Source of the DNA: Ignavibacteriota bacterium
GTDB lineage: Bacteria > Bacteroidota > Ignavibacteria > Palsa-1295
Reading direction: 5' to 3'
Assembly: GCA_963787835.1 (NCBI GenBank)
Contig: CAWBEI010000002.1
Coordinates: 245,486-309,485, forward strand
DNA length: 64,000 nucleotides
This document shows positions 9,593 through 33,798 of this stretch, in pieces. The position numbers and the translations under genes are program-made. Every line of letters begins with the position of its first letter. Position 1 is the stretch's first letter. The notes under the pieces are model-generated. The model worked only from the letters and a program-made list of their open reading frames with translations, made no database searches and was not told the DNA's origin.

Positions 9593-9596
9593 GTCG

Positions 9597-10982: not shown

Positions 10983-10988
10983 GGCCGT

Positions 10989-12329: not shown

Positions 12330-12379
12330 GTGTTAGTGTACGATCCTGCGAATGATGTGGAACATCCCAGGACTTGGGG

Positions 12380-12389
12380 AAAAATCGTT
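12380..12389 (-). promoter_or_regulatory. shared upstream motif (A/G)(A/C)CGATTTTT, copy upstream of paralog C
   Basis: The minus strand reads AACGATTTTT, with 50 nt between the motif and the ATG at 12329. The same 8-mer occurs 49 nt upstream of the ATGs of E (18177) and F (22047). It resembles an nAnnTTTG-type -7 box of Bacteroidota-like promoters. Confidence 0.35.
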
Positions 12390-12529
12390 CTTTCGATCAA
12401 TTGCCAACGTTCGAGCAGCAATAAGCGAGTTATGCCATCCCCTGATTCAGCAACCTGATATCAAACGCTCTGGGGTGGTAATAGGTTTTCAGCCATTGTA
12501 CAGTTCATAGAATGAAAATATTCCTATTG

Positions 12530-12961: not shown

Positions 12962-12975
12962 GTAGGGCAATCCTC

Positions 12976-14664: not shown

Positions 14665-14706
14665 GTATTAATTTTTACCGTTAATTCCGAAGATCTGACA
14701 GGATGC

Positions 14707-17700
14707 TTATTTGGATGAGACCACTCTCCACCCGCCGGTAGTATTATAGGTGGAATCATAGATCAATGTCAATATTCCGTCGGGCGCGAGGATCAGGCTA
14801 TTACCGCTACCACCGACGAGATGAATCACGTCCCCAGCCGTACCTGCATCACTATTGAAAGTGATATTATAACTGCCCGTATTCACTAGGATCATGACGC
14901 GACCGTCCGCGCCACCTGTGATACCGTTTACAGTAGCTCCCGACGGACCTCCTGCGGAAATTTTGAAATAGCTGTTGGTTGTGCTTAACGCCCAGGCATT
15001 AGTGCTGCTACCGCTGGTTAGTTGCGTTGGGCTGTTAGAAGTCAGCGCCGCGCCACCGAATGTTTGGGTACCGGTCCAGGTGTTAGCATTGGTAAGATTG
15101 ATGCCGAGTTCATGCGCTGCAACGGTGCCTACCTGCAAGGTTGCATCGTAATTGAGCACATCCGCATTCAGGGTTTTATTAGCGGTGGAACTATTCACCG
15201 AACTCACAAGCGCTGCAGCCTGCGCCGCCGTCGTTGGGAGGGTTTGTGTACCGGTCCAAGTATTAGCATGAGTGACATCAAGCGTGAGCGTAGTGGTTCC
15301 ACCAAGGGCAACCGAACCGCCGCCGGCCAAACCAGAACCCGCCGTGACCGTAAGGCTCGGATTTGCAAGTGCTGAGTTCGGAACCGCAGAAGCGTTGATC
15401 GTCACCGCGCCTGTTCCTCCGCTTAAGCTGATACCCGTGCCAGCGACTGCGGAAGTTACACCTGTATTAGAAAGTGTTACCGTACCGCCAAGCGAAACCG
15501 GCGAACCCGATACCCCAAGACCCGTACCGCCTGTCACCGTGATGCTCGAATTGGCAAGCGCAGAGTTCGGAACCGACGTCGCGTTGACCGTGATCGACCC
15601 AGCGCCGTTCGTGATTGAAATTCCCGTGCCACTCGTAAGTGTTCCAAGCGAAAGAGTATTACCCGTCGTGTTGCCGATCAGCAACTGGCCGTTCGTGTAA
15701 GAGGTCTGACCCGTGCCGCCATTGGCAACCGGAAGGGCTGTGCCCGAAAGTGTTACTCCAAAGGTGCCACTTGATGTAATCGTTGCAGGAGAAACGGAAA
15801 GAAATGTTGGAACCGTCATGCCGACCGAAGTGACCGACCCGCTATTCGTAGTATTCAGCACTGTACCCGTAAAACTGAGACCCGAGCCAAGCGTGATTTC
15901 CTCCGGAACCTGATTTGTAGAGGCCGTCGGATTACCGAGTAGCGTAGTGTGCGTCTCGCTCTGCATCTTGGCATAAGTAACCTTATTCGCCCCGATCGTA
16001 ATGAGACCGGCATCGGTAATCGTCGCATCACCGCTCATTGCAACAGGGTTCCACGCAGGTGTGGATGAATTATAGATGAGCATGTTTGCATCTGCCACGC
16101 TTGCCATCGAACCGAGTGGGGATCCGTTGATCTTCTTTACAGCCGTTGTGCCCTGCGGTCCCGTTACATCACCGGCGAGATTACCACTGAAATTCGTTGC
16201 CGTAGTTCCTGCGGGAAGCGTCACGGTTCCCGTGAAGTTCACCGTGCCAGCAACCGTAGTGTTGCTCGGGCCGGTGTTATTGCCAATGTTAATGTTCATG
16301 GCACCGGAGGTATCGCCAATATTGATAGGATTCGTACCGGTCACATCGATATCGGTCGCTCCTCCCGTTGTGCGCAGCGTTCCAGTGTTGTTAAAGCTGG
16401 TATTCGAGGTCAGTGTGGTGAAAGCACCCGTGCCTGGAGTGGTTGCACCGACCGTGCCATTGAATGCTCCCGCGATGTTGTTGCTCGCGTTCGTGGCTGT
16501 GACGGCACCGGTGAGCGTTGAAGCATTGGTAACCGTGAGGCCTGTGCCTGCGCCATTGAAGGTAGCATCTCCGCCAACCGTCATGGCATTCGCTACGGCA
16601 AATGTTGTTGCATGAGAACCGTTGACCGTTGCCTGTGCTACGTGTGTCGAGGTGTTCTGAAGCGTCACGTCCTGCGTCATCATCGCGGTATCGGCAGTGG
16701 CCGAAGTAGCATCGCCGATGAAAATATCATTCTTCGCTAAACCGAGAGATGAGGAGGATAACGAACCTGCGGGAAGCGTCACCGTGCCAGTGAAGTTAAC
16801 CGTGCCGGCAAGCGTGGTCACGCTCGGGCCGGTATTATTGCCAATGTTGATGTTCATGGCACCGGAGGTATCGCCAATATTGATGGGATTTGTGCCCGTC
16901 GTACTGATATCTGTCGTTCCCGTAGTGCGCAGCGTTCCGGTCGTTTGGATGCTTCCGGTCGTATTGATCACCGTCGAACCGCCGATATTGCCGGCGCCCG
17001 TGATCTGTGCTGCCGGATAGGTCAGTCCGCTCGGGAGCGTCTGTGACCATTGCGGCGTGCCGATCGGAGATGCCGCATTAGTGATAAGAACCGAATTAGC
17101 CGATGGGGCAAGTGGCGTAGCTACGTTGCTCGTATTGCCGACCAACATATATTGATTGGTAAGCCCGATAGAACCCGCTGTAACTGAACCGGAAGGTAAC
17201 GTAACCGTGCCCGTGAAACTTACGGCACCGGCGAGATATGTGGTGCTGCTGTCGCCGGGACTGCCAGCGCTGCCGTTATTACCGATGGTAACCACACCGC
17301 CTGTGCCCGCAGTCGCATCGATACTCGTGTTCGCAGCCGGCGCTGAAGCCGGGCTGTTAATATTTGTGTTGCCATAGACATTGGTCGTGCTCGTGCTGTT
17401 ACCAATGTTGTTCGTTCCACCCGTCGCGCTGTTATCAATATTGGTGGTCGGATTCGAACCGCTGTTATTGAGGCCACCACCGCTCGGTGTGAGGATTCCA
17501 CCTGTGAAGCTTGCCTGACCGGTATTCGTAACATACCATGAATCACCTGTGATGTCATTCACACCGGAACCCGGCGTGGCAGCATTCGACAGGGTAAGCG
17601 GCGTTCCAGATCCAGCACCACTTGCTGGGGTGTTAATCGTTTGCTTAGCCGTCCATGTGTTAGAATTCGCAAGGTTGATACCAAGTTTATTTGAACTAAC

Positions 17701-18177
17701 CGTCAATGTGGAATTGATGTTGAGGACATTAGCATCTAACGAGCCAACAGCAACTTGACCTGTTCCACTGCCATAGTTATTGAGCGCGCCAACAATATCC
17801 GTTCCAGCAGTATTTTCAATGACTGTCGCCAGGGAGGTTCCCCCAACATCACCGGATAAGTTCACAGTGAGTCCGGAGGCTGGGTTGGTCCAGCTAAGAC
17901 CGCCCGTCGTGGTGTTCATGGTAAGGACATATCCGACAACGCCACCAGGCTCCGTGCCAGGGAACGTCAGCGTGAACGATCCTGCGGCCGGAGTCGCCGC
18001 CGAGATCGAAAGCGTGTGCTTCGTATCCGTCCCATTGCCGGCGAGGACCACCCCTGTGGCATGAACGGAATCGTAGGTTTGAGAAAAGGCGCGAGGGGCA
18101 ATGCCAGCCAGTAAGGCAAGCGTCACCGCAACCGTCAAAAAAGTGATCTTGTTTTTCATTGCACTATTCTGAATCAT
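14707..18177 (-). CDS. secreted fibre-like protein, paralog E (class-2 C-terminus)
   Basis: Start is ambiguous between ATG 18177, ATG 18159 and ORF start 18201. The signal peptide ends ..PRAFS and is followed by QTYDSVHATGVVLAGNGTD. TGTNPINIGDTSGAMNINIGNNTGPS..AGTVNFTGTVTLPAG occurs twice internally. It carries the cassette VTSVGMTVPTFLSV..TLSGTALPVANGGTGQTS. The C-terminus ends ..ILTLIYDSTYNTTGGWRVVSSK. Confidence 0.9.
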   Translation of the reverse strand: MIQNSAMKNKITFLTVAVTLALLAGIAPRAFSQTYDSVHATGVVLAGNGTDTKHTLSISAATPAAGSFTLTFPGTEPGGVVGYVLTMNTTTGGLSWTNPASGLTVNLSGDVGGTSLATVIENTAGTDIVGALNNYGSGTGQVAVGSLDANVLNINSTLTVSSNKLGINLANSNTWTAKQTINTPASGAGSGTPLTLSNAATPGSGVNDITGDSWYVTNTGQASFTGGILTPSGGGLNNSGSNPTTNIDNSATGGTNNIGNSTSTTNVYGNTNINSPASAPAANTSIDATAGTGGVVTIGNNGSAGSPGDSSTTYLAGAVSFTGTVTLPSGSVTAGSIGLTNQYMLVGNTSNVATPLAPSANSVLITNAASPIGTPQWSQTLPSGLTYPAAQITGAGNIGGSTVINTTGSIQTTGTLRTTGTTDISTTGTNPINIGDTSGAMNINIGNNTGPSVTTLAGTVNFTGTVTLPAGSLSSSSLGLAKNDIFIGDATSATADTAMMTQDVTLQNTSTHVAQATVNGSHATTFAVANAMTVGGDATFNGAGTGLTVTNASTLTGAVTATNASNNIAGAFNGTVGATTPGTGAFTTLTSNTSFNNTGTLRTTGGATDIDVTGTNPINIGDTSGAMNINIGNNTGPSNTTVAGTVNFTGTVTLPAGTTATNFSGNLAGDVTGPQGTTAVKKINGSPLGSMASVADANMLIYNSSTPAWNPVAMSGDATITDAGLITIGANKVTYAKMQSETHTTLLGNPTASTNQVPEEITLGSGLSFTGTVLNTTNSGSVTSVGMTVPTFLSVSPATITSSGTFGVTLSGTALPVANGGTGQTSYTNGQLLIGNTTGNTLSLGTLTSGTGISITNGAGSITVNATSVPNSALANSSITVTGGTGLGVSGSPVSLGGTVTLSNTGVTSAVAGTGISLSGGTGAVTINASAVPNSALANPSLTVTAGSGLAGGGSVALGGTTTLTLDVTHANTWTGTQTLPTTAAQAAALVSSVNSSTANKTLNADVLNYDATLQVGTVAAHELGINLTNANTWTGTQTFGGAALTSNSPTQLTSGSSTNAWALSTTNSYFKISAGGPSGATVNGITGGADGRVMILVNTGSYNITFNSDAGTAGDVIHLVGGSGNSLILAPDGILTLIYDSTYNTTGGWRVVSSK

Positions 18178-18225
18178 ATGGTTGGGACCCTGCTCGCGCA
18201 CAACGTCCCCTGAAAATTAAATTCC

Positions 18226-18236
18226 AAAAAATCGTT
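18226..18236 (-). promoter_or_regulatory. shared upstream motif AACGATTTTTT, copy upstream of paralog E
   Basis: The minus strand reads GAACGATTTTTTGG, with 49 nt between CGATTTTT and the ATG at 18177. It sits downstream of the hairpin that follows paralog F. Confidence 0.35.
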
Positions 18237-18268
18237 CAACTACTAATAACCGTGTCGTGATCTATTGG

Positions 18269-18321
18269 AAAAAGATCCCGAGGATCCGGGCCGCAGCAGC
18301 ACATCGTTGATGATGTGCTGC
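18269..18321 (-). terminator. hairpin(s) plus T-run downstream of paralog F
   Basis: GCAGCACATC (18296-18305) pairs with GATGTGCTGC (18312-18321) as a perfect 10-bp stem with a 6-nt loop. On the minus strand this is followed by a small CCCG..CGGG stem and TTTTT (18269-18273). Confidence 0.5.
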
Positions 18322-18387
18322 AATGCGCGACCCGATCTCTTCGATATTCATTTCCATTACTCTTATCCTTCGATGCGTCGATCGCGA

Positions 18388-21300
18388 TTACTCCGCACCG
18401 ATAAGACGCCACTTCGAACCGTCATAGATGAGCGTGACGGATCCACCGGGTGTCATAATCACATCACCGCCGTTAAGGACAAGGCTACCGTTGCTATGCA
18501 GCGTGATGTTGTTCGTTGGGTCGGTATTCACAAGCGTGATGATCTGACCCGCCGTCGTATTCGCACCCGTAATACTGTTAACCGTAACCGGCGCTGCCGT
18601 AGCTGTTAGCAGGTAAGCCGAATTGCTGGTGGTAAGCGTAAGCGTTGCCGCTGCAGCAACCGTTGCAGACGAAAGAGCCGTGCTTCCGAGGGTTGTCTGG
18701 CCAACCGCCGTAAGAGTTCCATTTAGCTGCGTAGCGTTCGTAACGGTAAAGCCACTTGCGCCGCTTGCTGCGGAAACAGTTACCTTCCCAACATCAGGTG
18801 TACCCGCCGTGAAAACGATCCCGGCATCACCCGTCATCCCAACGTCCTCGGCATCACTGCTGGCATTGCCAACAAACAGATGACTGGTCGTCAGGCTAAG
18901 TGAACTCGGCGTTACCGAACCCGCAGGCAACTTGACGGTACCTGTAAAATCGACATTGCCAGTAAGATTTACATCGCCATTGATGGTGGTTAAGCTGCTA
19001 TCGAGTGTTCCGATTGTATGAGCTGTCCCGTTGTTACCAATGTTGATGTTTCCGAGCGTTGTTCCTGTACCCGCGTTAATGTTCGTGGTTCCCGTTGCAC
19101 CGGCTGGGGACGGTACATCGATCGTCGTGTTGCCCGTCGAGGTAACCGTGGAGAACGTCTGCAACGTGCTCCAGGAGTTACTATAAGCATCGTTGATGCT
19201 CAAGGTCGTACCAGAGCCAAGAACTGCAGAACCTCCACCGGAAAGTCCCGAACCGGCAGTGACCGTCGTCGCATCGTTCGCAAGATCGCCGTTCGTAACA
19301 GCCGAAGGTTGGATGGTCGTTTTGCCGGTGTTGTCAATATGCACATCACCACTCATCGCAACGCCTGTCGCTATGCTGGGAGTCGCGCCGTTGCCAACGA
19401 AGATGTCGGCAGAGGCAAGGCCGAGGTTAAGATCGCCGGCCGGGATATTCACGGCACCCGTGAAATTCACTGCGCCGGCGATATTCGTCGTGCTGCTGTC
19501 GCCAGGGTTTCCGACGCTACCGTTGTTACCAATGTTGATCACGCCCTCGCTGCCCACTCCAGCATCGAGGTTTGTCGTGGAATTTACGATGCTGCCGGTA
19601 GTTGAGTTGTTAATGTTCGTATTCGCACCGTTGATCGTCGTCGTGCTACCAGTACCAGATGAGCCGATCGTGTTCGAGATATTGGAGGCATTACCATCCG
19701 ATGTGTTCACGCCACCGTTGAAGGTCGCTACACCCGTGTTTGTAACGTTCCATGTGTTGCCAGTGCCGCTAACATCGAGTGACGTGCCTGAAACATCCGT
19801 GTTATTCAAAGACAGCGCTGCACCCGCGACTCCGTTGGTACTACTCGAAGCCGTAAGCGTTGGGATCGTTAAGTCGCTTGGAAGCGTCGTTGCCCATTCT
19901 GGCGTGGTGTGGTCGCTTCCAGCTGTGATGAACACCGAATTGGAAGATGGCGCAAGTGGCGCAGCCACGTTCGGAGTTCCGTTGTTGCCTACAAAGATGT
20001 TCTCATACGCAAGGCCGAGGTTAAGATCGCCGGCAGGAATATTAACCGCGCCAGTGAAATTAACCGTGCCAGCCATATTCGTCGTGCTGCTGTCGCCAGG
20101 GGTTGTCCCACCGTTGTTACCGATGTTGATCACACCTTCAGTGCCAGTTCCCGCATCGATGTTAGTCGTCGAGTTTACGACCGTATTGGCAGGCGAGTTG
20201 TTGAGGTTGGCATTCCCCGTCTCAGTCAAACCACCATTGAACGTCTGCAAGGTGCTCCAGGTGTTCCCATAAGCATCGTTAATGCTCAAGGTCGTACCAG
20301 AGCCAAGAACTGCAGAACCTCCACCGGAAAGTCCCGAACCGGCAGTGACCGTCGTCGCATCGTTCGCAAGATCGCCGTTCGTAACAGCCGAAGGTTGGAT
20401 GGTCGTTTTGCCGGTGTTGTCAATATGTACGTCACCGCTCATCGCAACGCCTGTTGCTATGCTGGGAGTAGCGCCGTTGCCAACGAAGATGTCGGCAGAG
20501 GCAAGGCCGAGGTTAAGATCGCCCGCTGGGATATTCACCGTTCCAGTGAAATTAACTGCACCAGCAAGATAGGTTGTGCTGCTGTCGCTGTAAGGAGGTG
20601 TAGCACCGGCAGTGCCGTTGTTACCAATCGTGACGACCCCCATCGAGCCCGTCGCGTCGATGTCTGTATTATTATCCGGCCCTGTTGCTGGGCTGTTAAT
20701 ATTCGTGTTGCCCAGCACAGTGGTCGTGCTCGGGCCGGCGCTATTGCCAATGTTAATGTTCATGGCGCCGGAGGTATCACCAATATTGACAGGACTCGTA
20801 CCCGTCGTATTGATATCTGCCGCTCCTCCTCCAGTAGTGCGAAGGATTCCGGTTGTCTGGATGCTACCCGTCGTGTTGATAACCGTCGAACCGCCGATAT
20901 TGCCAGCGCCGGTGATCTGTGCAGCCGGGTAGGTCAATCCGCTCGGAAGCGTCTGAGACCATTGCGGCGTGCCGATCGGAGATGCCGCATTGGTGATAAG
21001 AACCGAATTGGCCGATGGCGCAAGTGGCGTAGCATCGTTGCTTGTATTACCAACCAACATGTATTGATTGGTAAGCCCGATCGAACCTGCCGTGACCGAG
21101 CCGGAAGGCAATTGAACCGTTCCAGTGAAATCAACCGCACCGGCGAGATACGTCGTGCTGCTATCTCCGGAACCAGTGCCATTATTACCAATTGTTACGA
21201 CGCCCTTATCGCCAGTCGCATCAATGTCGGTGTTAGCATCCGGCCCCGTAACTGGGCTGTTAATATTCGTGTTGCCATAGACATTGGTTGTGCTCGTGCT

Positions 21301-22047
21301 GTTACCAATGTTGTTCGTACCACCCGTCGCGCTATTATCAATGTTGGTGGTCGGATTCGAACCACTGTTATTGAGGCCACCGCCGCTTGGCGTGAGGATT
21401 CCACCAGAGAAGCTTGCCTGGCCCTGGTTCGTTACATACCATGAGTCGCCAGAAATGTCATCACTGCCCGCCGCACCAGTATTTGTTACCGTAAGTGGGG
21501 TGGTAGCCGTTGAGGAGCTGAAGTTTTGCGCACCCGTCCATGTGTTAGGATTCGTAAGGTTGATACCGAGAGCATTGGTGCTAACCGTCAACGTGCTATT
21601 GATGTCCAGCACATTAGCATCCAAGGAGCCAACGGCAACTTGGCCGATTCCACTGCCGTAGTTATTGAGTGCTCCAACGATGTCCGTTCCAGCGGTATTT
21701 TCAATGACCGTAGCTGCGGACGTCCCCCCCACATCACCGCTCAAATTCACGGTGAGTCCGGAGGCAGGGTTGGTCCAGCTCAGACCCCCCGTCGTGGTGT
21801 TCATGGTAAGCACATACCCGACAACGCCGCCAGGCTCCGTGCCCGGGAACGTCAGCGTGAACGAGTTTGCCGCAGGAACGGCCGCGTTAAGCGTCACCGT
21901 TTTTCCGGTGTTCGTTCCCCCTCCGGCAAGTATCACTTCCGTGCTGAAGTCGGATTTATAGGTTTGCGCGTTCACAGTAGTGGCCGGCAGCAGCATCGCA
22001 TATGCAGCAAGCATCGCGACTGGAATCGCAAGTTTAAGGTATTTCAT
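18388..22047 (-). CDS. secreted fibre-like protein, paralog F (class-2 C-terminus)
   Basis: The signal peptide ends ..TTVNA and is followed by QTYKSDFSTEVILAGGGTN. The N-terminal ~400 aa are nearly colinear with E. An internal ~95-aa block is duplicated. The C-terminus ends ..SVTLIYDGSKWRLIGAE. Confidence 0.9.
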   Translation of the reverse strand: MKYLKLAIPVAMLAAYAMLLPATTVNAQTYKSDFSTEVILAGGGTNTGKTVTLNAAVPAANSFTLTFPGTEPGGVVGYVLTMNTTTGGLSWTNPASGLTVNLSGDVGGTSAATVIENTAGTDIVGALNNYGSGIGQVAVGSLDANVLDINSTLTVSTNALGINLTNPNTWTGAQNFSSSTATTPLTVTNTGAAGSDDISGDSWYVTNQGQASFSGGILTPSGGGLNNSGSNPTTNIDNSATGGTNNIGNSTSTTNVYGNTNINSPVTGPDANTDIDATGDKGVVTIGNNGTGSGDSSTTYLAGAVDFTGTVQLPSGSVTAGSIGLTNQYMLVGNTSNDATPLAPSANSVLITNAASPIGTPQWSQTLPSGLTYPAAQITGAGNIGGSTVINTTGSIQTTGILRTTGGGAADINTTGTSPVNIGDTSGAMNINIGNSAGPSTTTVLGNTNINSPATGPDNNTDIDATGSMGVVTIGNNGTAGATPPYSDSSTTYLAGAVNFTGTVNIPAGDLNLGLASADIFVGNGATPSIATGVAMSGDVHIDNTGKTTIQPSAVTNGDLANDATTVTAGSGLSGGGSAVLGSGTTLSINDAYGNTWSTLQTFNGGLTETGNANLNNSPANTVVNSTTNIDAGTGTEGVINIGNNGGTTPGDSSTTNMAGTVNFTGAVNIPAGDLNLGLAYENIFVGNNGTPNVAAPLAPSSNSVFITAGSDHTTPEWATTLPSDLTIPTLTASSSTNGVAGAALSLNNTDVSGTSLDVSGTGNTWNVTNTGVATFNGGVNTSDGNASNISNTIGSSGTGSTTTINGANTNINNSTTGSIVNSTTNLDAGVGSEGVINIGNNGSVGNPGDSSTTNIAGAVNFTGAVNIPAGDLNLGLASADIFVGNGATPSIATGVAMSGDVHIDNTGKTTIQPSAVTNGDLANDATTVTAGSGLSGGGSAVLGSGTTLSINDAYSNSWSTLQTFSTVTSTGNTTIDVPSPAGATGTTNINAGTGTTLGNINIGNNGTAHTIGTLDSSLTTINGDVNLTGNVDFTGTVKLPAGSVTPSSLSLTTSHLFVGNASSDAEDVGMTGDAGIVFTAGTPDVGKVTVSAASGASGFTVTNATQLNGTLTAVGQTTLGSTALSSATVAAAATLTLTTSNSAYLLTATAAPVTVNSITGANTTAGQIITLVNTDPTNNITLHSNGSLVLNGGDVIMTPGGSVTLIYDGSKWRLIGAE
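19190..20566 (-). repeat. intragenic direct duplication in paralog F (two ~290-bp near-identical segments, 1086 bp apart)
   Basis: About 19190-19480 and about 20276-20566 both encode ASADIFVGNGATPSIATGVAMSGDVHIDNTGKTTIQPSAVTNGDLANDATTVTAGSGLSGGGSAVLGSGTTLSINDAY. The plus-strand shadow ORFs at 19193 and 20282 have almost identical N-termini. Confidence 0.8.
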
Positions 22048-22091
22048 GTGTTGTTTCGTGAATTAGATTAATGGAGATGAAGTTAGGAATA

Positions 22092-22121
22092 ATCGCAAAA
22101 ATCGCTAAGTTATCGCAAAAA
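22092..22121 (-). promoter_or_regulatory. repeated TTTTTGCGAT motifs upstream of paralog F
   Basis: The minus strand reads TTTTTGCGATAACTTAGCGATTTTTGCGAT, with GCGAT three times and TTTTTGCGAT twice 20 nt apart. The proximal CGATTTTT lies 49 nt from the ATG at 22047. Confidence 0.35.
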
Positions 22122-22131
22122 CACTTTGTAG

Positions 22132-23532
22132 CTAATCGTTTGTCGAGACCAGTACCCACTTACCAAGGTGAGATGGGTCCGCATTGTCGTTCGTGTCGTA
22201 AAGAAATGTTGCCGCCCCTTTTTGGCCAAGTAGAATGGGCTTGCCGCCAGGGAGATCGAACTCGTCCACGGAAGCAGAATTCGCATCCAGGTTCGTGATC
22301 TGGATGATGTCGCCAGGATCGCTGCTCACGTTTGCGATCGTTACCATTCTACCGTCTGGAACGCTCGTGCTTGAAATTCCGCTGACGTTGATCTGCTTCG
22401 CAGGACTATTGGTGTTCGAAAGACGAATATACCCAACGGAATTAGCAACTGTATAAGGACTTTGATCCGTCGAGACGGCGTCAGATGCAATTGTTGGGGT
22501 TACTGTCGCCCCGTTGGTGATGTAGGACACCGCATGGGTGGTAGGATCCACGCCAAGCACCTGTCCGTCTGTACCCTGAGGAAGTCTTGAGAGGGCCGTT
22601 GTAGAACTTGCAACAAGAATGTCTCCGGTGGCGTACGTGCTATTGCCAGTTCCTCCTGCGACAGCGTTGACGGGTGCTGCCGGAGCATTCGCATTCAGCG
22701 AGGCCGCGATGTCGGTGCTGGCCGATTGGTTCGCCGCGATCGTTGGATTTGGATAGGTATTTGCAAGGTCGCCTCCGGCATTTCCGGAGGGAGCCGCTCC
22801 GATGGCGGTAAGTTGTCCGCCTGGGGTGACCGTGATGGTCGTATTATCAACAGAAACCACGCCAACGGAACTGGACGTTGCGATCGGAAGGTCTCCCGTG
22901 GGAATCGTTCCGGTGTTCGTTAAATTATCATTAGCATCGGTAAAGACCGGCATCGAGGCCGTAAGGCCAGCGATGTTCACATTTCCGGAGGTAACCGAAA
23001 GCGCGGTACCGCTCGCAACGGTATTGCTCGCTACGATCGGTGCGTTCGCATTAGATATATTCGAAAAGCTTTTTTGACCACTAATTGCCTGAGCGCCCTG
23101 GGTCATGACGAAACTCGCATTGGCTCCGGATGCTGGGATTGTGTCGATAAATGTGGATGTGCCTGGGTTCGCGGCCTGAATTTTAACATAGCCGTTTCCT
23201 CCAACATTGTAGAATTTGAGCGTTCCCGTAAGCGGGGTGTAGGGAGTGAGCGCATTAGATGGTTCGCCGATATTAGCGTTTTGAAGATGAAGTATTTGCT
23301 CCTCACCCATATTGAGATTGGAGACGGAACGGCCGTTAAACGTGAGCGTGTTCGAGTTTGAACCGCCGAGGACCAGATTCCCGTCGATCGTGGTGTTGCC
23401 AGAAGATGTATTAAGAAATACATCCTGCTGAACGGTCAGGGTTCCATTGATGACTTGATTCTGCGCGAATACCGTATCAACTCCTCCGAGCAGGAAGAGG
23501 CACGCTAAGCCTATTTTAGTTATTTTTTGCAT
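22132..23532 (-). CDS. secreted fibre-like protein, paralog G (class-2 C-terminus)
   Basis: ATG at 23532 gives MQKITKIGLACLFLLGGVDTVFA followed by QNQ. The displaced N-module is GTLKFYNVGGNGYVKIQAANPGTSTFIDTIPAS. It also has GGDLANTYPNPTI, and the C-terminus ends ..AATFLYDTNDNADPSHLGKWVLVSTND. Confidence 0.85.
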   Translation of the reverse strand: MQKITKIGLACLFLLGGVDTVFAQNQVINGTLTVQQDVFLNTSSGNTTIDGNLVLGGSNSNTLTFNGRSVSNLNMGEEQILHLQNANIGEPSNALTPYTPLTGTLKFYNVGGNGYVKIQAANPGTSTFIDTIPASGANASFVMTQGAQAISGQKSFSNISNANAPIVASNTVASGTALSVTSGNVNIAGLTASMPVFTDANDNLTNTGTIPTGDLPIATSSSVGVVSVDNTTITVTPGGQLTAIGAAPSGNAGGDLANTYPNPTIAANQSASTDIAASLNANAPAAPVNAVAGGTGNSTYATGDILVASSTTALSRLPQGTDGQVLGVDPTTHAVSYITNGATVTPTIASDAVSTDQSPYTVANSVGYIRLSNTNSPAKQINVSGISSTSVPDGRMVTIANVSSDPGDIIQITNLDANSASVDEFDLPGGKPILLGQKGAATFLYDTNDNADPSHLGKWVLVSTND

Positions 23533-23627
23533 GTTTCGCAATGTTCACAAAATTCGCACTTGTAACCCTCATCCAGCCCCGCGATGCATCACCATAATGC
23601 GGCGCGAAACCGGAAAAAAGACCGAAC

Positions 23628-26600
23628 CTATCGGCTCGGATTCACAATTATATAACCTACATTCACCGTCTTATTTGCCGTTGAAGTTTTACCGCTCAGT
23701 ACATTCTGAGTAAGCACCAAAGTAAAGTGACCGCTTGTCTGCCCCGTCGCTTGCACCGTGTATGTTGACTTTCCAGCATCGGGATCATTTTGAACCGTCG
23801 CCATAATAATGCTTGTAGATGAGCAGTACTCATTGCCCACCTGAAAATCTGCTTCTTGAATGTAAGGACCAGATTCAGATGCAAATCCCGACGCAAGTTG
23901 AACCAACCCCGAAGGGCCTTCCGATCCGGATACAGCGTTGTTTACCGTCGTGACACCGCTGCCGTTTTCGCCGTTCGGATTCGACGTCATTCCCATCGTC
24001 AGCTCACCGTTCTCGACATCCAGCGCCACATTTGTTTGGCCGTCTCCCGTTTCCCCATTTCCGCCCTGCGCAAGCACGCCGATGCTTTCAGTGTTGGTGG
24101 CAGAATTGCCGCTCGCAAGACCCCAAACGCCAATTACGGTTCTTCCCGAGGAATTACCTGCGGTTCCGACCGCCTCACCACGAACGCCAAAGGAGCCCGT
24201 GAAACCAGAGCCGCCAAAATTATAGTCATTATTCAGTTCACTATACGAGGTGGTCGCGTTGGTTACACCATAGATTCCAGAAATAGAGCCTTGTGCAAGA
24301 ATACCGTTCGGGTAATTAGCACTTGTAATTCCGATAGCAGCACCTGAATGGTTTGTATTGTCGGAGTTCGAACCCGCCATCTTGATCGAGTAAGTAGGAG
24401 TCGATGCCGTGCTGGAAAGCCCACCCGCAGTAAAAATATCACCTGAAACGCCCTCCAATTTGGCTGCGATGTCCGGTGCATGTGTGGTACCTACAAGGAG
24501 GCCAAAAGAACCCGCTGTAGCAGTAGTCGTTCCGTTGACGGTAATTCCAGCCGAGGATGCACCCGGTGTGAAAGTCGCCGCGATTGCAGTGTTGGTCGAT
24601 GTGCTGCCGGTTGCAGAAACATTCAGACCGGTTGCAGTTCCACCGGATGTAGCAATAGACTTAATAGTGGCCCCCAACGCGCTTGCAACACCCGCAGAAG
24701 GGTATTCCACATCAAATAGCTCATCTCCCGTAGTCGCCGTAATCTGTGCATTGGCAGGAGCGACATTATAATTCACGGCTGTACCGGTGTTCACAGTATT
24801 AAGCACTGTACCGTTAAAGGTTAGCCCCGATCCCAGCGTGATCTCGCTCGGAGCGGCCGATGCTCCGGTCGGATTACCGAGAAGAGTGACCGTGCTTTCC
24901 TGCTGAATATCGCCATACGTCACTGCATTCGCGGTGATCGATGTGGCATTACCAACCGACGTCACCGGACCCGTCAGGTTCGCATCCGTCGTTACCGTGG
25001 CCGCATTACCAGAGATGCTGATCCCCGCTGTGCCCGCCGAAATATTCGCCGCCGTCAGGTTCGTGAGTGCCGAGCCATTACCCGCAGCATAGTTCGTACC
25101 TGTTAACGTATTCATCGCCGCAGTCACCGTGATCGGCGCAGCGCCCGTGAACGTCACACCGTTGATCGTTGCACCCGGAGAAAGCGCGGAAGCCGTCGCT
25201 GCATTACCCGATGTGTTCGACGTGATCGTAGCCGGAAGGTCCGTCGCTGCGATCGAACGGAAGGCCGGAACACTGCCCGCCGTCGTATTCGCAAAAAATT
25301 GATTTGCACTCGCTACCGTCGATAATGTAAACGACAGTGCAGGAGTCGATGTCGGCGTGGCAACCGACGTCGTGAACAATGGGCTCAAGTTGCCGCTCGA
25401 GAACGAGGTAACTGTGCCGCCGCTACCGGTGGCTGTCAGGGTCGTTCCACTAAAGGCAAGACCGGAGCCGAGCGTGATCTCGCTCGGAGCGGCCGATGCT
25501 CCGGTCGGATTACCGAGAAGAGTGACCGTGCTTTCCTGCTGAATATCGCCATACGTCACTGCATTCGCGGTGATCGATGTGGCATTACCAACCGACGTCA
25601 CCGGACCCGTCAGGTTCGCATCCGTCGTTACCGTGGCCGCATTACCAGAGATGCTGATCCCCGCTGTGCCCGCCGAAATATTCGCCGCCGTCAGGTTCGT
25701 GAGTGCCGAGCCATTACCCGCAGCATAGTTCGTACCTGTTAACGTATTCATCGCCGCAGTCACCGTGATCGGCGCAGCGCCCGTGAACGTCACACCGTTG
25801 ATCGTTGCACCCGGAGAAAGCGCGGAAGCCGTCGCTGCATTACCCGATGTGTTCGACGTGATCGTAGCCGGAAGATCCGTTGCCGCGATCGAACGGAACG
25901 CCGGAGTGCTGCCACCGGTCGTGTTCGCGAAAAATTGATTCGCTGCAGTCACCGTCGATAATGTGAATGACAGTGCAGGAGTCGATGTCGGCGTGGCAAC
26001 CGACGTCGTGAACAATGGGCTCAAGTTGCCGCTCGAGAACGAGGTAACTGTGCCGCCGCTACCGGTGGCTGTCAGGGTCGTTCCACTAAAGGCAAGACCG
26101 GAGCCGAGCGTGATCTCGCTCGGAGCGGCCGATGCTCCGGTCGGATTACCGAGAAGGGTGACCGTACTTTCCTTCTGAATATCGCCGTACGTCACTGCAT
26201 TCGCCGTGATCGATGTGGCATTACCAACCGACGTGACCGGACCCGTCAGGTTCGCATCCGTCGTTACCGTCGCCGCATTGCCACTGGTGCTGTTCGTGAT
26301 CGCGCCGCTGCATCGATAACCGATGCCGAGATGCTGCCCACTGTCGGGTTCGGATAGGTGCCCGTCAGGCCGCCGCCCGCTGTGCCGCTGGGTGCCGCTG
26401 TCACCGTAATGTTCGAACCGCCTGTGAAGAGTACACCATTGATCTGGGCACCCGGAGAAAGCGCGGAAGCCGTCGCTGCATTACCCGATGTGTTCGATGT
26501 GATCGTAGCCGGAAGGTCCGTTGCTGCGATCGAACGGAAGGCCGGAACACTGCCCGCCGTCGTATTCGCAAAAAATTGATTTGCACTCGCTACCGTCGAT

Positions 26601-29350
26601 AATGTGAATGACAGTGCAGGGGTCGAGGTCGGCGTGGCAACCGACGTTGTGAACAATGGGCTCAAATTCCCGCTTGAGAACGAGGTAACCGTTCCGCCGC
26701 TACCGGTAGCCGTCAGGGTCGTTCCACTAAAGGCGAGACCGGAGCCAAGCGTGATCTCGCTCGGAGCGGCCGATGCTCCGGTCGGATTACCAAGAAGGGT
26801 GACCGTGCTTTCCTTCTGAATATCGCCGTACGTCACCGCATTTGCTGTGATCGATGTGGCATTACCAACCGACGTCACCGGACCCGTCAGGTTCGCATCC
26901 GTCGTTACCGTGGCCGCATTACCAGAGATGCTGATCCCCGCTGTGCCCGCCGAAATATTCGCCGCCGTCAGGTTCGTGAGTGCCGAGCCATTACCCGCAG
27001 CATAGTTCGTACCTGTTAACGTATTCATCGCCGCAGTCACCGTGATCGGCGCAGCGCCCGTGAACGTCACACCGTTGATCGTTGCACCCGGAGAAAGCGC
27101 GGAAGCCGTCGCTGCATTACCCGATGTGTTCGACGTGATCGTAGCCGGAAGGTCCGTTGCTGCGATCGAACGGAACGCAGGAACACTGCCCGCCGTCGTA
27201 TTCGCAAAAAATTGATTTGCACTCGCTACCGTCGATAATGTGAATGACAGTGCAGGAGTCGAGGTCGGCGTGGCAACTGACGTCGTGAACAATGGGCTCA
27301 AGTTGCCGCTCGAGAACGAGGTGAGCGATCCACTGTTTGTAGTGTTCAAAACAGAGCCCGTAAAGCTTAAACCCGAACCCAGCGTGATCTCGCTCGGAGC
27401 CTGGTTCGTCGCAGCCGTCGGATTGCCAAGCAATGTGGTGTGCGTCTCGTTCTGAATATTCGCATACGTCACTGCACCATTCGTGATCGTCGTCGCATTA
27501 CCGACCGATGTGACCGGACCCGTCAGGTTCGCATCCGTCGTTACCGTGGCCGCATTGCCACTGGTGCTGTTCGTGATCGCGCCCGCTGCATCGATAACCG
27601 ATGCCGAGATGCTGCCTACCGTCGGGTTCGGATAGGTGCCCGTCAGGCCGCCGCCCGCTGTGCCGCTGGGTGCCGCTGTCACCGTAATGTTCGAACCGCC
27701 TGTGAAGAGTACACCATTGATCTGGGCACCCGGAGAAAGCGCGGAAGCCGTCGCTGCATTACCCGATGTGTTCGATGTGATCGTAGCCGGAAGGTCCGTT
27801 GCTGCGATCGAACGGAAGGCCGGAACACTGCCCGCCGTCGTATTCGCAAAAAATTGATTTGCACTCGCTACCGTCGATAATGTGAATGACAGTGCAGGGG
27901 TCGAGGTCGGCGTGGCAACCGACGTTGTGAACAATGGGCTCAAATTCCCGCTCGAAAATGAGGTGAGCGATCCACTATTCGTGGTGTTCAAAACAGAGCC
28001 CGTAAAGCTTAAACCCGATCCCAACGTGATCTCGCTCGGAGCCTGGTTCGTCGCAGCCGTCGGATTGCCAAGCAATGTGGTGTGCGTCTCGTTCTGAATA
28101 TTCGCATACGTCACTGCACCATTCGTGATCGTCGTCGCATTACCAACCGAGGTCACCGGACCCGTCAGATTCGCATCCGTGGTTACCGTGGCCGCATTGC
28201 CACTGGTGCTGTTCGTGATCGCGCCCGCTGCATCGATAACCGATGCCGAGATGCTGCCTACTGTGGGGTTCGGATAGGTGCCCGTCAGGCCGCCGCCCGC
28301 TGTGCCGCTGGGTGCCGCTGTCACCGTAATGTTCGAAGCACCCGTGAAGTTTACACCGTTGATCTGGGCACCCGGAGAAAGCGCTGAAGCCGTCGCTGCA
28401 TTACCCGTCGTGTTCGACGTGATCGTAGCCGGAAGGTCCGTTGCTGCGATCGAACGGAACGCCGGAGCGCTACCACCCGCTAAGTTAGCGAAAAATTGAT
28501 TTGCACCCGCCACCGTCGATAACGTGAACGACAGCGCTGGGGTCGTCGTCGGTGTCGCAACCGATGTTGTGAACAATGGACTCAGGTTCCCACTTGAAAA
28601 CGACGTCACGGTACCACTGCTCGCCGTGACATTCAATGTGGTTCCGGAAAAGCTAAGCCCAGAACCCAGCGTGATCTCCTCCGGAGCCTGTCCTGATCCC
28701 GTCGGATTGCCCAACAAAGAGTGAGCACCCTCATTCTGGATCTTACCGTAGGAAATGGTGCTATTTGTGATGTCATTGTTAACTATGGCACTCCAGCTTG
28801 GCGGCGTTGAGCCATGCAACACCGTGTTCGCACCACCGTTCGCGATAGTAACGAAATTCCCGCTGCCATCGGTCGAGACATTCGAATTCGGAGTCAAGGC
28901 ACCGGCTGCCGTTACGATCCCAAGTTGTGCCGTCGTGGCATAGTCCCACGCACCATCGCTTCCGCCGTTATGGCCATCGCCGCTTAAGCTTGGCTGGTTC
29001 GGATACAGCCAGTAGGGAATAGTTACCGTGGTAGGATACGGAGACGCTGTTGGTGTTAATGGGCCAACATAAAGAAATCCGCTCTGGGCATTATTCGTCG
29101 GAGGAATGGGAACTTCCCAGATAAGAGGCGCATACGGCGGCGAGGTATGAGACCAGGCATTTGCTTCCGGACTTCCATAGAGCGGCGCCTGAATTGAAAC
29201 GGTGTGTCCATGATAATCATCCAGCACGAGCGCACCGCCCGCAATACCTCGAACCTGACCGATGGCATCTTGAGTTAACACGGTTCCCGCAAAGGCAACG
29301 AGAAAAAGGCATGCACGAAAGGGAGAAGGGGAAAGATTGGCTTTTTTCAT
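23628..29350 (-). pseudogene. giant fibre-like protein, paralog H (~1950 aa if repaired), interrupted by a 1-nt deletion near 26305
   Basis: ORFs 26264..29497 (ATG 29350: MKKANLSPSPFRACLFLVAFAGTVLTQDAIG followed by QVRG) and 23628..26195 are consecutive parts of one repeat protein. The sequence cgcgccgctg at about 26301-26310 reads gcgcccgctg in the sister units at 27581-27590 and 28221-28230. Restoring that C gives ..SVIDAAGAITNSTSGNAATVTTDANLTGPVTSVGNATSITANAVTYGDIQKE.. without interruption. Confidence 0.85.
24795..28753 (-). repeat. six and a fraction tandem coding repeats of 636-642 bp inside paralog H
   Basis: Unit starts derived from the ORF frames are 28753, 28111, 27469, 26833, 26192, 25556 and 24920 (partial). 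Several hundred bp are identical between units (for example about 24841-25230, 25471-25860 and 26841-27140). Plus-strand shadow ORFs beginning MNDSAGV.VGVATDVVNNGLK recur every 636-642 bp. Confidence 0.9.
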
Positions 29351-30124
29351 CACAAAACTATGAATGCTATTAAGAGTAATGATCCACCCGAAAAAGTACT
29401 TTTTAATTTTTATCGCAGCTCGACTATTCCTCACCGTCACGCAGGAACTATTGTATCCCGGAACTATAACGCGCGACATTCTCTCACGTGCGACCAATGA
29501 GAAACAGATTTACGTAATCCGGTCGTTTCCAACCCGTTCCACGCAAACATCGTTCGATGTCACCATCGAAGCAGGATGAAAGTTTTCGGCCCGCACCCTC
29601 TCGTTCGTTATACTTTATGCAACCAAGAAACATCTCGCAGACGGGATCGCAAAAAACCCGCCCATCGATACATGCTCGCCGCCATAAGCGAGATTCAAGT
29701 CAGAATCCGAGGCTCCAACGATCCTATTCGCAAAAACAAGGATGAAAGAGAATATCGCATTCCCATAGATCGCACTAGCTCCCGGCCTCCCAGCTAACAG
29801 ATAAGCGTTAGTAAACATTATGCCAACCGGGAAAACCGCTTTATTTTGCCAATTTCAAAGGTTGTCTTTATGACATTGTCCGTTTATGAAACAAAAATAT
29901 CAAATTGTTTTTCAAAATCGGACAAGAACAGAAAACGCTTTTAATTAGAAAACTAAGTGCTAAATAAATGCAGGGATCTAAGGTTTGAAATCAATATACT
30001 ATGATTATAGCTCTATTCTGATTTCTTTCGTTAGAAGTGATGTCATGACAGCATCCATCTGAAATAGGTTTCTTAAAAAAATAACGGAGAAAAGTATTTC
30101 TTTCAGAAACCCCATCTTCCTCGT

Positions 30125-33100
30125 CTAAACACTAAGTCCGCTATCCGATGCAAGAAACAATGGAGAATCGAAGTTCGAGTACTCGATATCGGGAAGAGAA
30201 CGGTCGATCACATCCAGGAGCTGCGATCTGGTGAATGGCTTCGAAAGAAAATCCGTACAGCCAGCCCTGATCGCTTCGTCTCGATCTGACTTTTTTGCGT
30301 AAGCGGTCAGCGCGATGATCGGAAGGCTGGCTAATTGTTTATCCTGGCGAAACTCCGTCGTTAATTCTAGGCCAGTTGTAAACTCACCCAGATTAATGTC
30401 CATAAGAATGAGATCGGGGATCGTTTCATTTACGATTTTCTTGGCAGTTCCGATCCTTGGGGCATGGATGATCTCAAATCGGTCTTGCAGATGCGCCTGC
30501 ACTAACTTCACGGTATCGATGGAATCCTCAACCAGCAAGAGCAAGGGCTTTGGTGCATTATCTTGCGTTTGCTGCTGCTCCTCAGAGGGCGGGACTGGAT
30601 GCAATGGAAGACAAACAATGAAAATACTCCCAACACCTCTGCTGCTTCGAACCTCGATCGAGCCACCCATGGCTAACGCCAGACGGCTCGTGATCGTAAG
30701 CCCCAAACCCGACCCCTCATAGTAGCGATGCATTCCAGTCGATTCCTGAGTGAATTCTTCGAAGATCGATGCCAGGTTCTCTGAACCGATCCCCAACCCG
30801 GTATCTTCAACAACAATGCGGAAATAATCCTGCTGCGGAGGCTGCCCTATACTATATGATGCATATCCTTGAGGCATCGGAAGCGACGCATCCAGCTCTT
30901 GTCCGAATTGCACCGTTACAGTCACTTCTCCACGTCGAGTGAATTTTATTGCGTTGCCAAGGAGATTGGTTACAATATGATCAAATCGCTGTGGGTCGAT
31001 CATGGCGTGAGGGTCTTCCATGGATGGATGGAACAGAAGCCGGATCTGCTTGGAAGATGCAAGTGGTTCGACCGAAGCAAAAATCTGTTGGATGGCTTCA
31101 TTGACCTCTACGAGTTCTGGTGAAAGCTTTAGCTTTTTCGATTCGATCTGCGCATGATCGAGAATATTGTTGATGGTGCTAAGGCAGGCGATTCGCGCTC
31201 GACTCGATGGTTGCAGCATGATCCGCCAAAGCCCGATCCGGTATTCTCTCTTTGAGAATTTCAGCGAAGCCAAGAATAGCGGTCATAGGCGTTCGGATCT
31301 CGTGACTCATATTGGCGAGGAAATTCGATTTCAATTGTGTCATTTCCTCGGCCTTTTCTTTGGCACGCATCGCGTGGTTTCGCTGCTCTTCCAACTGGAT
31401 CTCCATTTGCCTTCGAACAGTAATGTCCTGCGTACATCCGACCATTCGATAGGGCTTTCCACGGTCGTTCAAGGAGAGCATCGAACGATCCCACACATAG
31501 ACCCAATGGCCGTCTTTATGGCGCATGCGGTATTCGGATTCATACAATTTCTTGTCTGGACAAAGGTCGGCAATGGCCTCATTTGCCAGAGCAAGGTCAT
31601 CGGGATGGATACGCGATCTCCACCATTCGATGGTGCCAGTTTCTGGCTCCTCAATGGGATCGAAACCAAGAAGCTGCTTCAGGCCAGAGGATCGTTCACA
31701 AAAACCGGTTGATAGGTCGAGATCATAGATCAGGGATGAAACAGCTTCCGATGCAAGCTGGAAACGCTCGTTAGCTTGCATCAACTGCTGCTGCATTTGG
31801 GCACGCTCGGTAATATCGCGAATCGATCCGATGACTCGAATGGCTATTCCATGTTCGTCGCGAAATATCTGACCGGCGTCCCACACATGGATCCAGTGAC
31901 CGTCTTTATGCTGCATCCGGCATTCCAGTTCGTAGCGCATACGTTCAGGATTCGTATTTTCGATGAGATCCTTGACTAAACCAACATCGTCCGGATGAAC
32001 GCGGCTAAGCCACCACTCCACGGAGGCTGTCTCTGGTTCCAACTCCGGATCGAATCCCAGGAGATTTTTCAATTCCGGCGAACGGTGAGAGCGCATGGTA
32101 ACGGGATCGAAATCATAAATAACCGTTGTGATCGCATCCGATGCAAGTTTATACCGCTCGTTCATTTCCCTTAATTTTTGTTCCATCTGGACGCGTTCGG
32201 AAATGTCCCGATGTATTCCAAGCACTCGTGCCGCTTTGCCGCTCTCATCGGTAAAAATTTGGGCACTATCCCACAGATACACCCAGTGCCCATCCTTATG
32301 CTGTACACGATACTCGAGTTCTGAATTTCCCAGACTCTTGACGACGGCAGCAGCGTGAGCTCGAACCATGCCTATATCATCCGGGTGGACACGACTCATT
32401 AACCACTCGAACGTCCCGGTTTCGGGCTCTGTGTCAGGGTCGAACCCCAACATTCTTAAGAATCCTCTGGAACGTTCGACTGCTCCTGTTGCTAAGTTCA
32501 ACTCAAAAATACAGATGTTAACCGATTCAGAGGCAAGGTGGTACCGTTCGTTCACTCGCTCCAATTCAAGGTTCACCTTTAATTGGTCGGTCACATCCTC
32601 AATAAAGGCGAACCGGGCATTCCGACCTTCATACTGTACGGCATGGTGAAAAACCTGTACGCTTATCCGATCCCCATTTTTCTTCACATGCGTTACACTG
32701 ACGGATGGCTCATTGTTTGGGCCGCGTATCACCTTCGCATATTTCTCAAAAAAAGCTTCCTGGCTCTCTACAGGGTGCAAATCATAAACGAAAAGCTTCA
32801 AAAATTCTTCTTCCGAATAACCATAGAGCTGGCAAGCAGCGCGGTTCACTTTCAAATATTGGAACGTTTCAATATCTAAAATCCACATCGGCAAGGGGCT
32901 GTCTTCGAAGAGCAGACGATACTGGGATTCCGATCGGAGGAGTTCCTGTGCAATGCGGTGACGCTCCGTGATCTCGGTCAGCAAGTAGAGCCAACCTGTT
33001 GACGTTCCATCCTGCCGGAGGGAAAAGATGGACATCGAAAAAAAACGAGTCTCGAAGTTCGTAAGCTTTAATTGACAGATCCCTTGCCATACTCCCTGCT

Positions 33101-33798
33101 CTTTGATGATAGCTCCAATATCCTCATTCGGTGTGGAAGGAATCCACTCTTCTCCAAGAACCATTGGCCCATATTTCCCGATGGCGTCTGCGCTCGAAAT
33201 ACCAGTTACCTGTTCGGCCGCTTGATTCCAGTAGGTGATGATGCCGGCGGTGTCACTGGCAATAACGGCATCACCGATCTGGGAAATAACGTTTGCCTGT
33301 AATTGAATTTGCTCTCGTGATTTCCATTCTTTAGTAATATTCCTTCCAAATACTGCGACACTCACGACCGCATCACCCTCGAAAACGGGATCGAACGTGA
33401 ATTCAACAATATGGCCACTTAGTTCAGGGGTGAAATGGCGAACTTCTGTCACCTTTTCACCCTGGAAAGCGCGCGCATAAGCCGCAGCCCAAAATGGTTG
33501 TTCTGTTGGCGGCAAGTAGGAGCTGATCTCCATCCCTTCAATCAACTCCACATGATAGAAGTGATGAAAAATATTTTTTAAGAACGAGATTGAATGTCAG
33601 AAGTCGTGCTTCCCGATCCACCAGGCAGATGGCATCGTTCGAGTTATCGAGCACGAACCGGAGCATTGCATTAACCTGCATTGTCCCGGAGTTGGGGCTA
33701 AGACTACCCATACTTCCGTTCTCTTTATTATGTAGGTTCGCGCCGGTTTTACTCGGTGGGGCTGATTCAACCGTTAATGCGCGATTGACTTTATTCAT
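30125..33798 (-). pseudogene. multi-PAS hybrid sensor histidine kinase/response regulator, reading frame broken twice
   Basis: Three consecutive ORFs (33538..33798, 31179..33551, 30125..31273) make one protein. The first PAS domain is split at the A6/T5 runs (33567-33579). The HisKA helix is split at about 31184: MSHEIRTPMTAILGFAEIL...IESSANRL joins LSTINNILDHAQIESKKL once one C is removed. Downstream lie the HATPase domain (DTGLGI, GSGLGLTI) and the receiver (LLLVEDS..LILMDINL). Three PAS units share W..SR(V/I)HPDD. Confidence 0.8.

Follow-up and report, generated by a model that had tools for sequence, protein, structure and literature searches.

A tandem repeat array inside one long gene

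The window analysed here, by which we mean the whole 64,000-nucleotide stretch of contig CAWBEI010000002.1 (positions 245,486 to 309,485) from the Ignavibacteriota genome assembly GCA_963787835.1, contains a long minus-strand gene with an internal tandem array, which we refer to as gene H. Gene H occupies window positions 23628-29350, from an ATG at 29350 to a stop codon at 23628, and would encode about 1,907 amino acids (aa) after correction of a 1-nt indel. As assembled, it is read as two consecutive minus-strand open reading frames (ORFs), 26264-29497 (1077 aa) and 23628-26195 (855 aa). The Thr/Ser/Gly-rich repeat is common to the translations of both ORFs and runs on across the frameshift that separates them.

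From the N- to the C-terminus, gene H consists of a putative signal peptide, an N-terminal domain, a shaft of six repeat units, a seventh X module (see below) and a head. The ATG at 29350 stands before MKKANLSPSPFRACLFLVAFAGTVL, and the corrected gene opens with MKKANLSPSPFRACLFLVAFAG. In the translation, the signal peptide, which was called by eye from two lysines followed by a hydrophobic run, and the unique N-terminal domain together span about 199 aa (28754-29350, minus strand); the latter had no family match in Pfam or NCBIfam. The C-terminal head region (23631-24794, minus strand; ~390 aa) is conserved in orthologues and includes a terminal beta-sandwich of ~108 aa (23640-23963, minus strand), the only part of the protein that AlphaFold2 modelled with confidence. 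A terminator-like hairpin followed by a T-run (23622-23639, minus strand) overlaps the stop codon. Taking the sequence features together, we consider it likely that the array forms the shaft of one Sec-secreted, fibre-like surface protein of ~1,907 aa in this soil bacterium, of which the export, the oligomeric state and the binding of a ligand are predictions.

Boundaries and sub-modules of the repeat units

A first-pass annotation of the sequence had placed six unit starts at 28753, 28111, 27469, 26833, 26192 and 25556, with a partial seventh at 24920. When the DNA was cut at these starts, the resulting units of 642, 642, 636, 641, 636 and 636 bp aligned in register, and a separate repeat search returned spacings of 642/642/636/641/636, which confirms the array as it had been laid out. 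Tandem Repeats Finder missed it, the period being above the 500-bp limit of this tool.

Each unit of ~213 aa is a chain of four parts in the order X, core, Y and linker. The X and Y modules are variable, the core (74 aa) and the linker (GNAATVTTDANLTGPVTSVGNAT) conserved. The X module (alignment columns 1-150) exists in three versions, X0 in unit 1 (U1), X1 in U2 and U3 (92% mutual identity) and X2 in U4 to U6 (93-97%), with an identity of ~60% between versions. The core (columns 151-385) is 84-99% identical among the units. Two versions of Y (columns 386-560) were distinguished that are ~50% identical to each other, namely Y1 in U1, U2 and U4 (95-98%) and Y2 in U3, U5 and U6 (100%).

All units are encoded on the minus strand. 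U1 (28112-28753, 642 bp) is composed of X0, core, Y1 and linker t1, and U2 (27470-28111, 642 bp) of X1, core, Y1 and linker t1, with columns 163-494 identical to U4. U3 (26834-27469, 636 bp) combines X1, core, Y2 and linker t2; it matches U5 exactly over columns 322-632 and U6 over columns 316-632. U4 (26193-26833, 641 bp) reads X2, core, Y1 and linker t2; it carries the 1-nt deletion and is the sole recombinant unit. U5 (25557-26192) and U6 (24921-25556), each of 636 bp, both read X2, core, Y2 and linker t2 and are 96% identical overall, and the core of U5 is the most divergent among U2-U6 (89-91% to the others). The partial seventh copy (U7p; 24795-24920) is an X module of which the first 89 nt match U6 before the sequence continues into the head; it departs from U6 at column 90, right after the invariant APSEITLGSGL motif.

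Identical runs measured 332 nt between U2 and U4, 311 nt between U3 and U5, 317 nt between U3 and U6, and 324 and 191 nt between U5 and U6. The units had been described as near-identical, which is true of the 311-332-nt tracts and of the U5/U6 pair but not of whole units in general, the identities of which range from 70 to 96%.

Mosaic structure of the array

Two incompatible site patterns were found along the unit. A split of U2 and U4 from U3, U5 and U6 was supported by 87 sites in columns 168-603, and a split of U2 and U3 from U4, U5 and U6 by 39 sites in columns 8-150. In a permutation test of the pairwise homoplasy index (PHI) type, the observed value was reached in 0 of 1000 shuffles. 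Given the two splits and this test result, the discordance along the unit is not due to chance. Together with tracts of 311-332 nt that are 100% identical between flanks of different versions, these patterns bear out the earlier proposal of recombination or gene conversion.

The last 85 columns of a unit co-vary with the X module of the next unit. Re-phased accordingly, the array reads X0-[core Y1 X1]-[core Y1 X1]-[core Y2 X2]-[core Y1 X2]-[core Y2 X2]-[core Y2 X2']-head. In this core-Y-linker-X phase there are just three combinations, with Y1X1 present twice, Y2X2 three times and Y1X2 once. The claim that all four X/Y combinations occur is therefore correct in the phase of the first-pass annotation, but not in this one. 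Since three combinations remain, two unit types and a single recombinant are sufficient to explain the array, which is fewer events than had been implied. The former 'X1-Y2' unit is the boundary of the A-type and B-type blocks defined below. U4 equals U2 over 332 nt of core and Y1, and its linker and the following X are B-type, which places the switch point within the conserved GNAATV...GNAT linker.

Duplications and at least one recombination event are recorded in the array itself. We propose that it derives from two unit types, A (core-Y1-linker-X1) and B (core-Y2-linker-X2), and would have grown by tandem duplication. At least one homologous recombination or gene conversion across conserved segments would then have given rise to U4 and to the 311-332-bp identical tracts. 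Such events would be ordinary homologous recombination, by unequal crossing-over or gene conversion, with the conserved core and linker serving as homology. The direction and rate of exchange, like a functional role of the cassettes, are suggested by this pattern rather than observed.

A wider pool of modules

With a profile of gene H's six units, we searched the genome and related loci in six-frame translation. In the same genome, contig C4 (370973-383486, minus strand) encodes a second giant fibre with nine full units in an open frame of 4,171 aa (the C4 gene). Its units have X2-like or X1-like modules and either Y1 or a third version, Y3, which is 7 aa longer, and other module combinations are present as well. 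The last ~70 residues of this frame appear to be out of frame, perhaps because of a further indel. A 3,722-aa frame in a congener (genome G006, locus L014 on contig C10, CAVZOL010000010.1, of the metagenome-assembled genome (MAG) MFD05512.bin.2.5) contains fourteen 120-aa repeats consisting of the end of Y, linker and X without a core, and two units of X, core and linker without Y. The C4 gene also has units of the latter kind, and on contig C1 a gene repeats X together with half a core. When 1.84 billion representative proteins were searched, 1,449 clusters matched, mostly to parts of the unit. Judged from these sequences, the sub-modules are independent building blocks that are also found separately.

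Two contigs from the Joint Genome Institute (JGI) revealed further arrangements. On one of these, an independent contig (L013), a unit joins the N-half of X1 to the C-half of X2, followed by Y2; this chimera switches at APSEITLGSGL, the motif after which U7p departs from U6. Another unit on L013 carries a fourth Y version (Y4). Across genes and populations, at least three X and at least four Y versions are thus present. The other contig (L012; Ga0454607_0021431) is 92.5% identical to our sequence at the nucleotide level over the head and the downstream gene, and homology with gene H breaks at window position ~24884; upstream of the last X module, its shaft is unrelated. Since L012 pairs a near-identical head with a different shaft, head and shaft appear to be exchanged independently. 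Shaft composition differs from that of gene H in the congeners as well. Repeat number had been expected to vary between strains; the difference seen here is one of composition.

The protein identity of the head to that of gene H is 96% for L012, 56% for L013 and 52-56% for genomes G002 and G006. On L013, the unit beside the head scores 366 bits with the six-unit profile, as strong as gene H's own units. In Y2 and in the N-part of X1, this unit and gene H are 98-100% identical at the protein level. Evolution is therefore faster in the head than in the shaft. The terminal beta-sandwich is common to paralogues of ~700 aa throughout the genus (genus-wide matches at residues 666-855).

Age of the module versions

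Comparison of gene H with its C4 paralogue revealed a core synonymous divergence (dS) of 1.3, even though the unit proteins are ~91% identical. The X1, X2 and Y1 modules of the two genes are 90-97% identical as proteins, with a proportion of synonymous differences (pS) of 0.45-0.59. This high protein identity at high pS indicates that the X and Y versions are long-established types of module and that purifying selection acts on each of them. The ratio of nonsynonymous to synonymous divergence (dN/dS) of the core is 0.05-0.10. In no 12-codon segment along the unit does third-position identity between the genes leave the range of 25-69%. This uniformly low level, together with the core dS of 1.3, rules out that the two genes exchanged sequence recently.

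Within gene H the ages are mixed. The Y2 modules of U3 and U5 have a pS of 0 (the three copies of Y2 are the same at the nucleotide level), and the Y1 modules of U2 and U4 one of 0.04. X copies with identical protein sequence have a pS of 0.13 (X1, U2/U3) or 0.20 (X2, U4/U5), and core dS within the gene reaches 0.73 (U1). The exchange had been dated as very recent, and this can be maintained for the identical tracts; it does not extend to the rest of the array, where the X modules and cores have diverged to the extent given above and the versions themselves are old. Recombination may accordingly draw on a repertoire of old, selectively maintained X and Y versions that gene H has in common with the C4 gene and with related populations.

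Family, structure and genomic context

The X modules match the Pfam family DUF5907 (PF19264) with 64.0 bits over four stretches in the 5' ORF and 41.2 bits over three stretches in the 3' ORF, both above the cut-off of 27, and many homologues bear the same Pfam mark. The family spans the X part alone, about 50 of the 213 residues of a unit. A local match of Y1 to the tail-fibre family PHROG 1833 (E 2.4e-12) covers 48 residues, and the start of Y (SNTSGNAATA...INGV.F.G..NITVTA) resembles the phage tail-fibre repeat. In gene H, no Pfam tail-fibre or chaperone domain was found at threshold, NCBIfam gave spurious sub-threshold matches only, and neither database revealed an anchor domain. A sequence search against PDB chains returned nothing meaningful for the unit or the 3' ORF, Rfam at gathering threshold detected no RNA family in the window, and our literature search retrieved no paper on DUF5907.

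An AlphaFold2 monomer model of one unit, based on a 22-row alignment, had a mean predicted local distance difference test score (pLDDT) of 55 and a predicted template modelling score (pTM) of 0.21; models this poor are common for intertwined fibres but are no proof of one. For the C-terminal 400-aa piece, the model was confident in the last ~110 residues only (block-mean pLDDT 74-87, residues 310-390). In Foldseek searches, this terminal sandwich matched the C-terminal ends of uncharacterised proteins from tailed phages (E 5e-4 to 1e-3, root-mean-square deviation ~3 A). Its match to the H-type lectin 2ccv was weak (E 0.19).

Gene H lies in a cluster of at least eight genes whose products bear signal peptides, are rich in Thr/Ser/Gly and differ in their C-terminal heads. 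The seven further genes of this kind lie at 8255-23541 (minus strand); several share the N-terminal motif YDK.YAKS..LAG, and at least three kinds of C-terminal head are represented, one of which matches Phage_depo_C (PF25692). The neighbourhood is chromosomal, with genes for FtsY, MutL, malate dehydrogenase (Mdh), a sigma factor, lipopolysaccharide synthesis and a histidine kinase, and family scans of it revealed no phage genes near gene H.

Other assignments of the protein were considered and rejected. A phage or tailocin tail fibre does not agree with the location, as gene H has a putative signal peptide and is surrounded by fibre paralogues, a kinase and housekeeping genes. Type IX secretion cargo is not indicated, since the C-terminal ORF has no Por_Secre_tail or TIGR04183 match in Pfam and NCBIfam searches. 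A trimeric autotransporter adhesin is contradicted by the lack of a match to YadA or anchor families, and by a C-terminus that is a soluble beta-sandwich in the model. Elsewhere in the window, a protein encoded at 59358-61322 (minus strand) has Por_Secre_tail and the product of 50732-51859 is weakly PorV-like, from which it appears that the organism has type IX secretion.

Two peat data sets, one a metatranscriptome (run X6) and the other a metagenome (run X5), contained contigs that are 93-99% identical to the repeats (window 25793-27536). A peat contig also matched the unique 5' part of gene H (29033-29232), and one of the metatranscriptome contigs lies there. The copy in a close relative is therefore probably transcribed, although the metatranscriptome contigs may represent DNA carry-over.

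The break in unit 4

The deletion that splits gene H lies at 26304-26305 and reduces GGG to GG on the coding strand, so that GCGGGC in U1 and U2 is GCGGC in U4 (plus-strand position ~26304). It closes the 5' ORF 36 nt further on, and the repeat picks up in another frame. The short-read evidence used here and below consisted of Logan contigs from Illumina soil metagenomes that match this genome at 99% or more; the labels of these runs (X1 to X4) are unrelated to those of the X modules. A contig of run X4 (26292-26477) has an extra C behind 26304 and is otherwise identical to U4, with two differences to U2. One from run X2 has the same extra base at this place, but fits U2 about equally well.

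A histidine kinase gene 5 kb away is split alike: this hybrid histidine kinase/response regulator (30125-33551, minus strand) has HisKA in one ORF and HATPase_c plus the receiver in another, overlapping one. The assembly base at 31183 in this gene is absent from a short-read contig, which marks a second consensus indel. The window belongs to a 3.57-Mb MAG of seven contigs, and the congener G006 is a MAG from Microflora Danica, a project reported to have applied deep Nanopore sequencing to 154 samples of soil and sediment (PMC12313526). Because of this low contig number and the origin of the congener, the genome can be read as a long-read assembly, presumably one with residual homopolymer errors. 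Since short reads carry the base that is lacking in U4 and a similar indel exists at 31183, the frameshift is probably a long-read consensus error and gene H probably intact.

Alternative explanations

The first-pass annotation had cautioned that the region could be mis-assembled, and had suggested that read depth be profiled over the repeats. In runs X1 and X2 the k-mer depth was 2-3.9 in the unique flanks, 9.2-9.7 (about 3 times the flank) in unitigs (261-365 nt) that cover the Y2 tract shared by U3, U5 and U6, and 5.1-5.3 (about 2 times the flank) in unitigs over the tract shared by U2 and U4. These depths fit three and two copies as assembled. As the unitigs are independent of the assembly, the identity of the tracts is no polishing artefact but a real property of the population. 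A collapse, an expansion or a chimeric joint introduced during assembly, or polishing with mis-mapped long reads that rendered the tracts identical, would have some footing in the 1-nt consensus errors of this assembly, in the 3.9 kb of repeats that had to be resolved and in the lack of spanning reads, no Nanopore runs that hold the locus having been found and all related short-read contigs ending inside the array. Apart from the matching depths, however, runs X1-X4 showed no alternative joints between units, a 3.9-kb array is normally spanned in a presumably long-read assembly of seven contigs, and a like mosaic is present in the C4 gene and on the independent JGI contig. The concern was thus not supported, and to an artefact we assign only a small chance. 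The frameshift could likewise be taken at face value, such that gene H would be a true pseudogene, or phase-variable through slippage in the G-run, with an array that decays or is regulated instead of being expressed. This is what the assembly itself indicates with GG for GGG in U4 and two ORFs. Yet a run of just three G is too short for the classical slipped-strand mechanism, the in-frame version is present in short-read contigs, from which the second indel in the kinase gene is likewise absent, and neither half of gene H has further stops, with a dN/dS of ~0.08. We therefore regard loss or switching of the gene as improbable.

A more far-reaching possibility is programmed diversification, in which X and Y would form exposed loops, antigenic or involved in binding, that undergo frequent active reshuffling, for instance by gene conversion from paralogous donors, and would vary the fibre surface in response to phages, predators or changing substrates. 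Invariant motifs do flank the variable cassettes, the versions across genes and populations number at least three for X and four for Y, sub-modules form chimeras (the X1-N/X2-C unit of L013, and U7p), and the shaft is swapped in the near-identical strain represented by L012. On the other hand, the core dS of 1.3 shows that gene H and the C4 gene have not exchanged sequence recently, alternative joints were not seen in the short reads, and one or a few ordinary recombination events explain the pattern. The 30 ORFs scanned (the two halves of gene H and the 28 other ORFs of at least 250 aa in the window) include no recombinase, reverse transcriptase or invertase family, a scan that did not extend to small genes or inverted repeats. 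A programmed process is very unlikely on this balance. A diversity-generating retroelement or an invertible element was rejected on the same 30 ORFs, with no dedicated inverted-repeat search having been run; moreover, the differences between Y1 and Y2 affect about half of all positions and are not confined to particular bases.

Ordinary recombination between two unit types, in the shaft of one intact fibre gene, is thus the reading that we prefer, but several points weigh against it. Block replacement by outside donors could also yield the three Y/X combinations. The unit number and order depend on the assembly plus k-mer depths at low coverage (~3x), and the short-read contigs with an intact frame derive from other samples than the assembled strain. 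The fibre or trimer architecture is suggested by composition and remote tail-fibre similarity only, and this phage relationship is remote, given that a tblastn search with one unit had no match in 50,697 phage genomes. Finally, the function suggested for the head comes from weak fold matches, those in the PDB all having E values of 0.03 or worse.

Comparison with known systems

Tandem-repeat surface proteins with concerted evolution include streptococcal alpha C/Rib, staphylococcal SasG/Aap and Bap/Esp. Gene H has the characteristics of such an array, with in-frame units, identical tracts of 311-332 nt and a signal that is discordant along the unit. Like these proteins, its product is predicted to be secreted, and its central part is an array of long units that have nucleotide tracts in common; it would similarly evolve by unequal recombination and gene conversion and function as a stalk holding out a binding domain at its end. 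Unlike them, it is found in the diderm Ignavibacteriota, its repeat is a DUF5907 repeat with a tail-fibre-like motif, it lacks LPXTG or another recognised anchor, and its units are heterogeneous, with two or three versions of two internal cassettes.

In mosaic phage tail fibres, such as those with T-even gp37/gp38 'His-box' recombination or the repeats of lambda Stf and Phage_fiber_2, conserved motifs flank swappable segments. Gene H is comparable in its Thr/Ser/Gly-rich composition, in module junctions that lie within invariant motifs, in a head that is exchanged apart from the shaft, in the similarity of Y1 to PHROG 1833 and in a terminal beta-sandwich that resembles the C-termini of tailed-phage proteins. 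It differs from them in its chromosomal position within a paralogue cluster with no phage genes nearby, in its putative signal peptide, and in the lack of both a phage-genome match to the unit and a tail-fibre or chaperone domain at the Pfam threshold. Among DUF5907 proteins, a family without known function, gene H is placed by its X modules, which match above the cut-off.

The repeat shuffling in gene H is real but ordinary, as surface proteins are well known to undergo repeat expansion and gene conversion, and the array opens no new mechanism. Its interest lies in giant fibre-like proteins of an uncultured phylum that are built from a few old sub-modules, joined at invariant motifs and amplified in tandem. 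The shaft would set the length and reach of the beta-sandwich head, which may bind a ligand, and recombination at conserved linkers could then alter shaft length and composition between strains. It is conceivable, but in our view unlikely, that the X and Y cassettes are exposed functional surfaces, that the invariant linkers are built-in recombination sites and that DUF5907 fibres diversify combinatorially. If this were true, shaft modules and heads would be reassorted within and between genes in Ignavibacteriota and in the DUF5907 fibres of other soil bacteria, and the system would be a cellular counterpart to phage tail-fibre mosaicism inside a repeat array.

The locus is also a worked example of how real repeat structure can be told apart from long-read assembly error. 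Its frameshift, probably an artefact, would lead annotators to two genes or a pseudogene, and a claim that all combinations occur in a tandem array can hinge on the phase in which units are counted. Two minor features recur once per unit. Promoter-like TTGATT-16-GATAAT matches are present on the plus strand at 25299, 25935, 26576, 27212 and 27854, and antisense ORFs such as 27440-27880 have the same periodicity; both are most likely by-products of the repeat.

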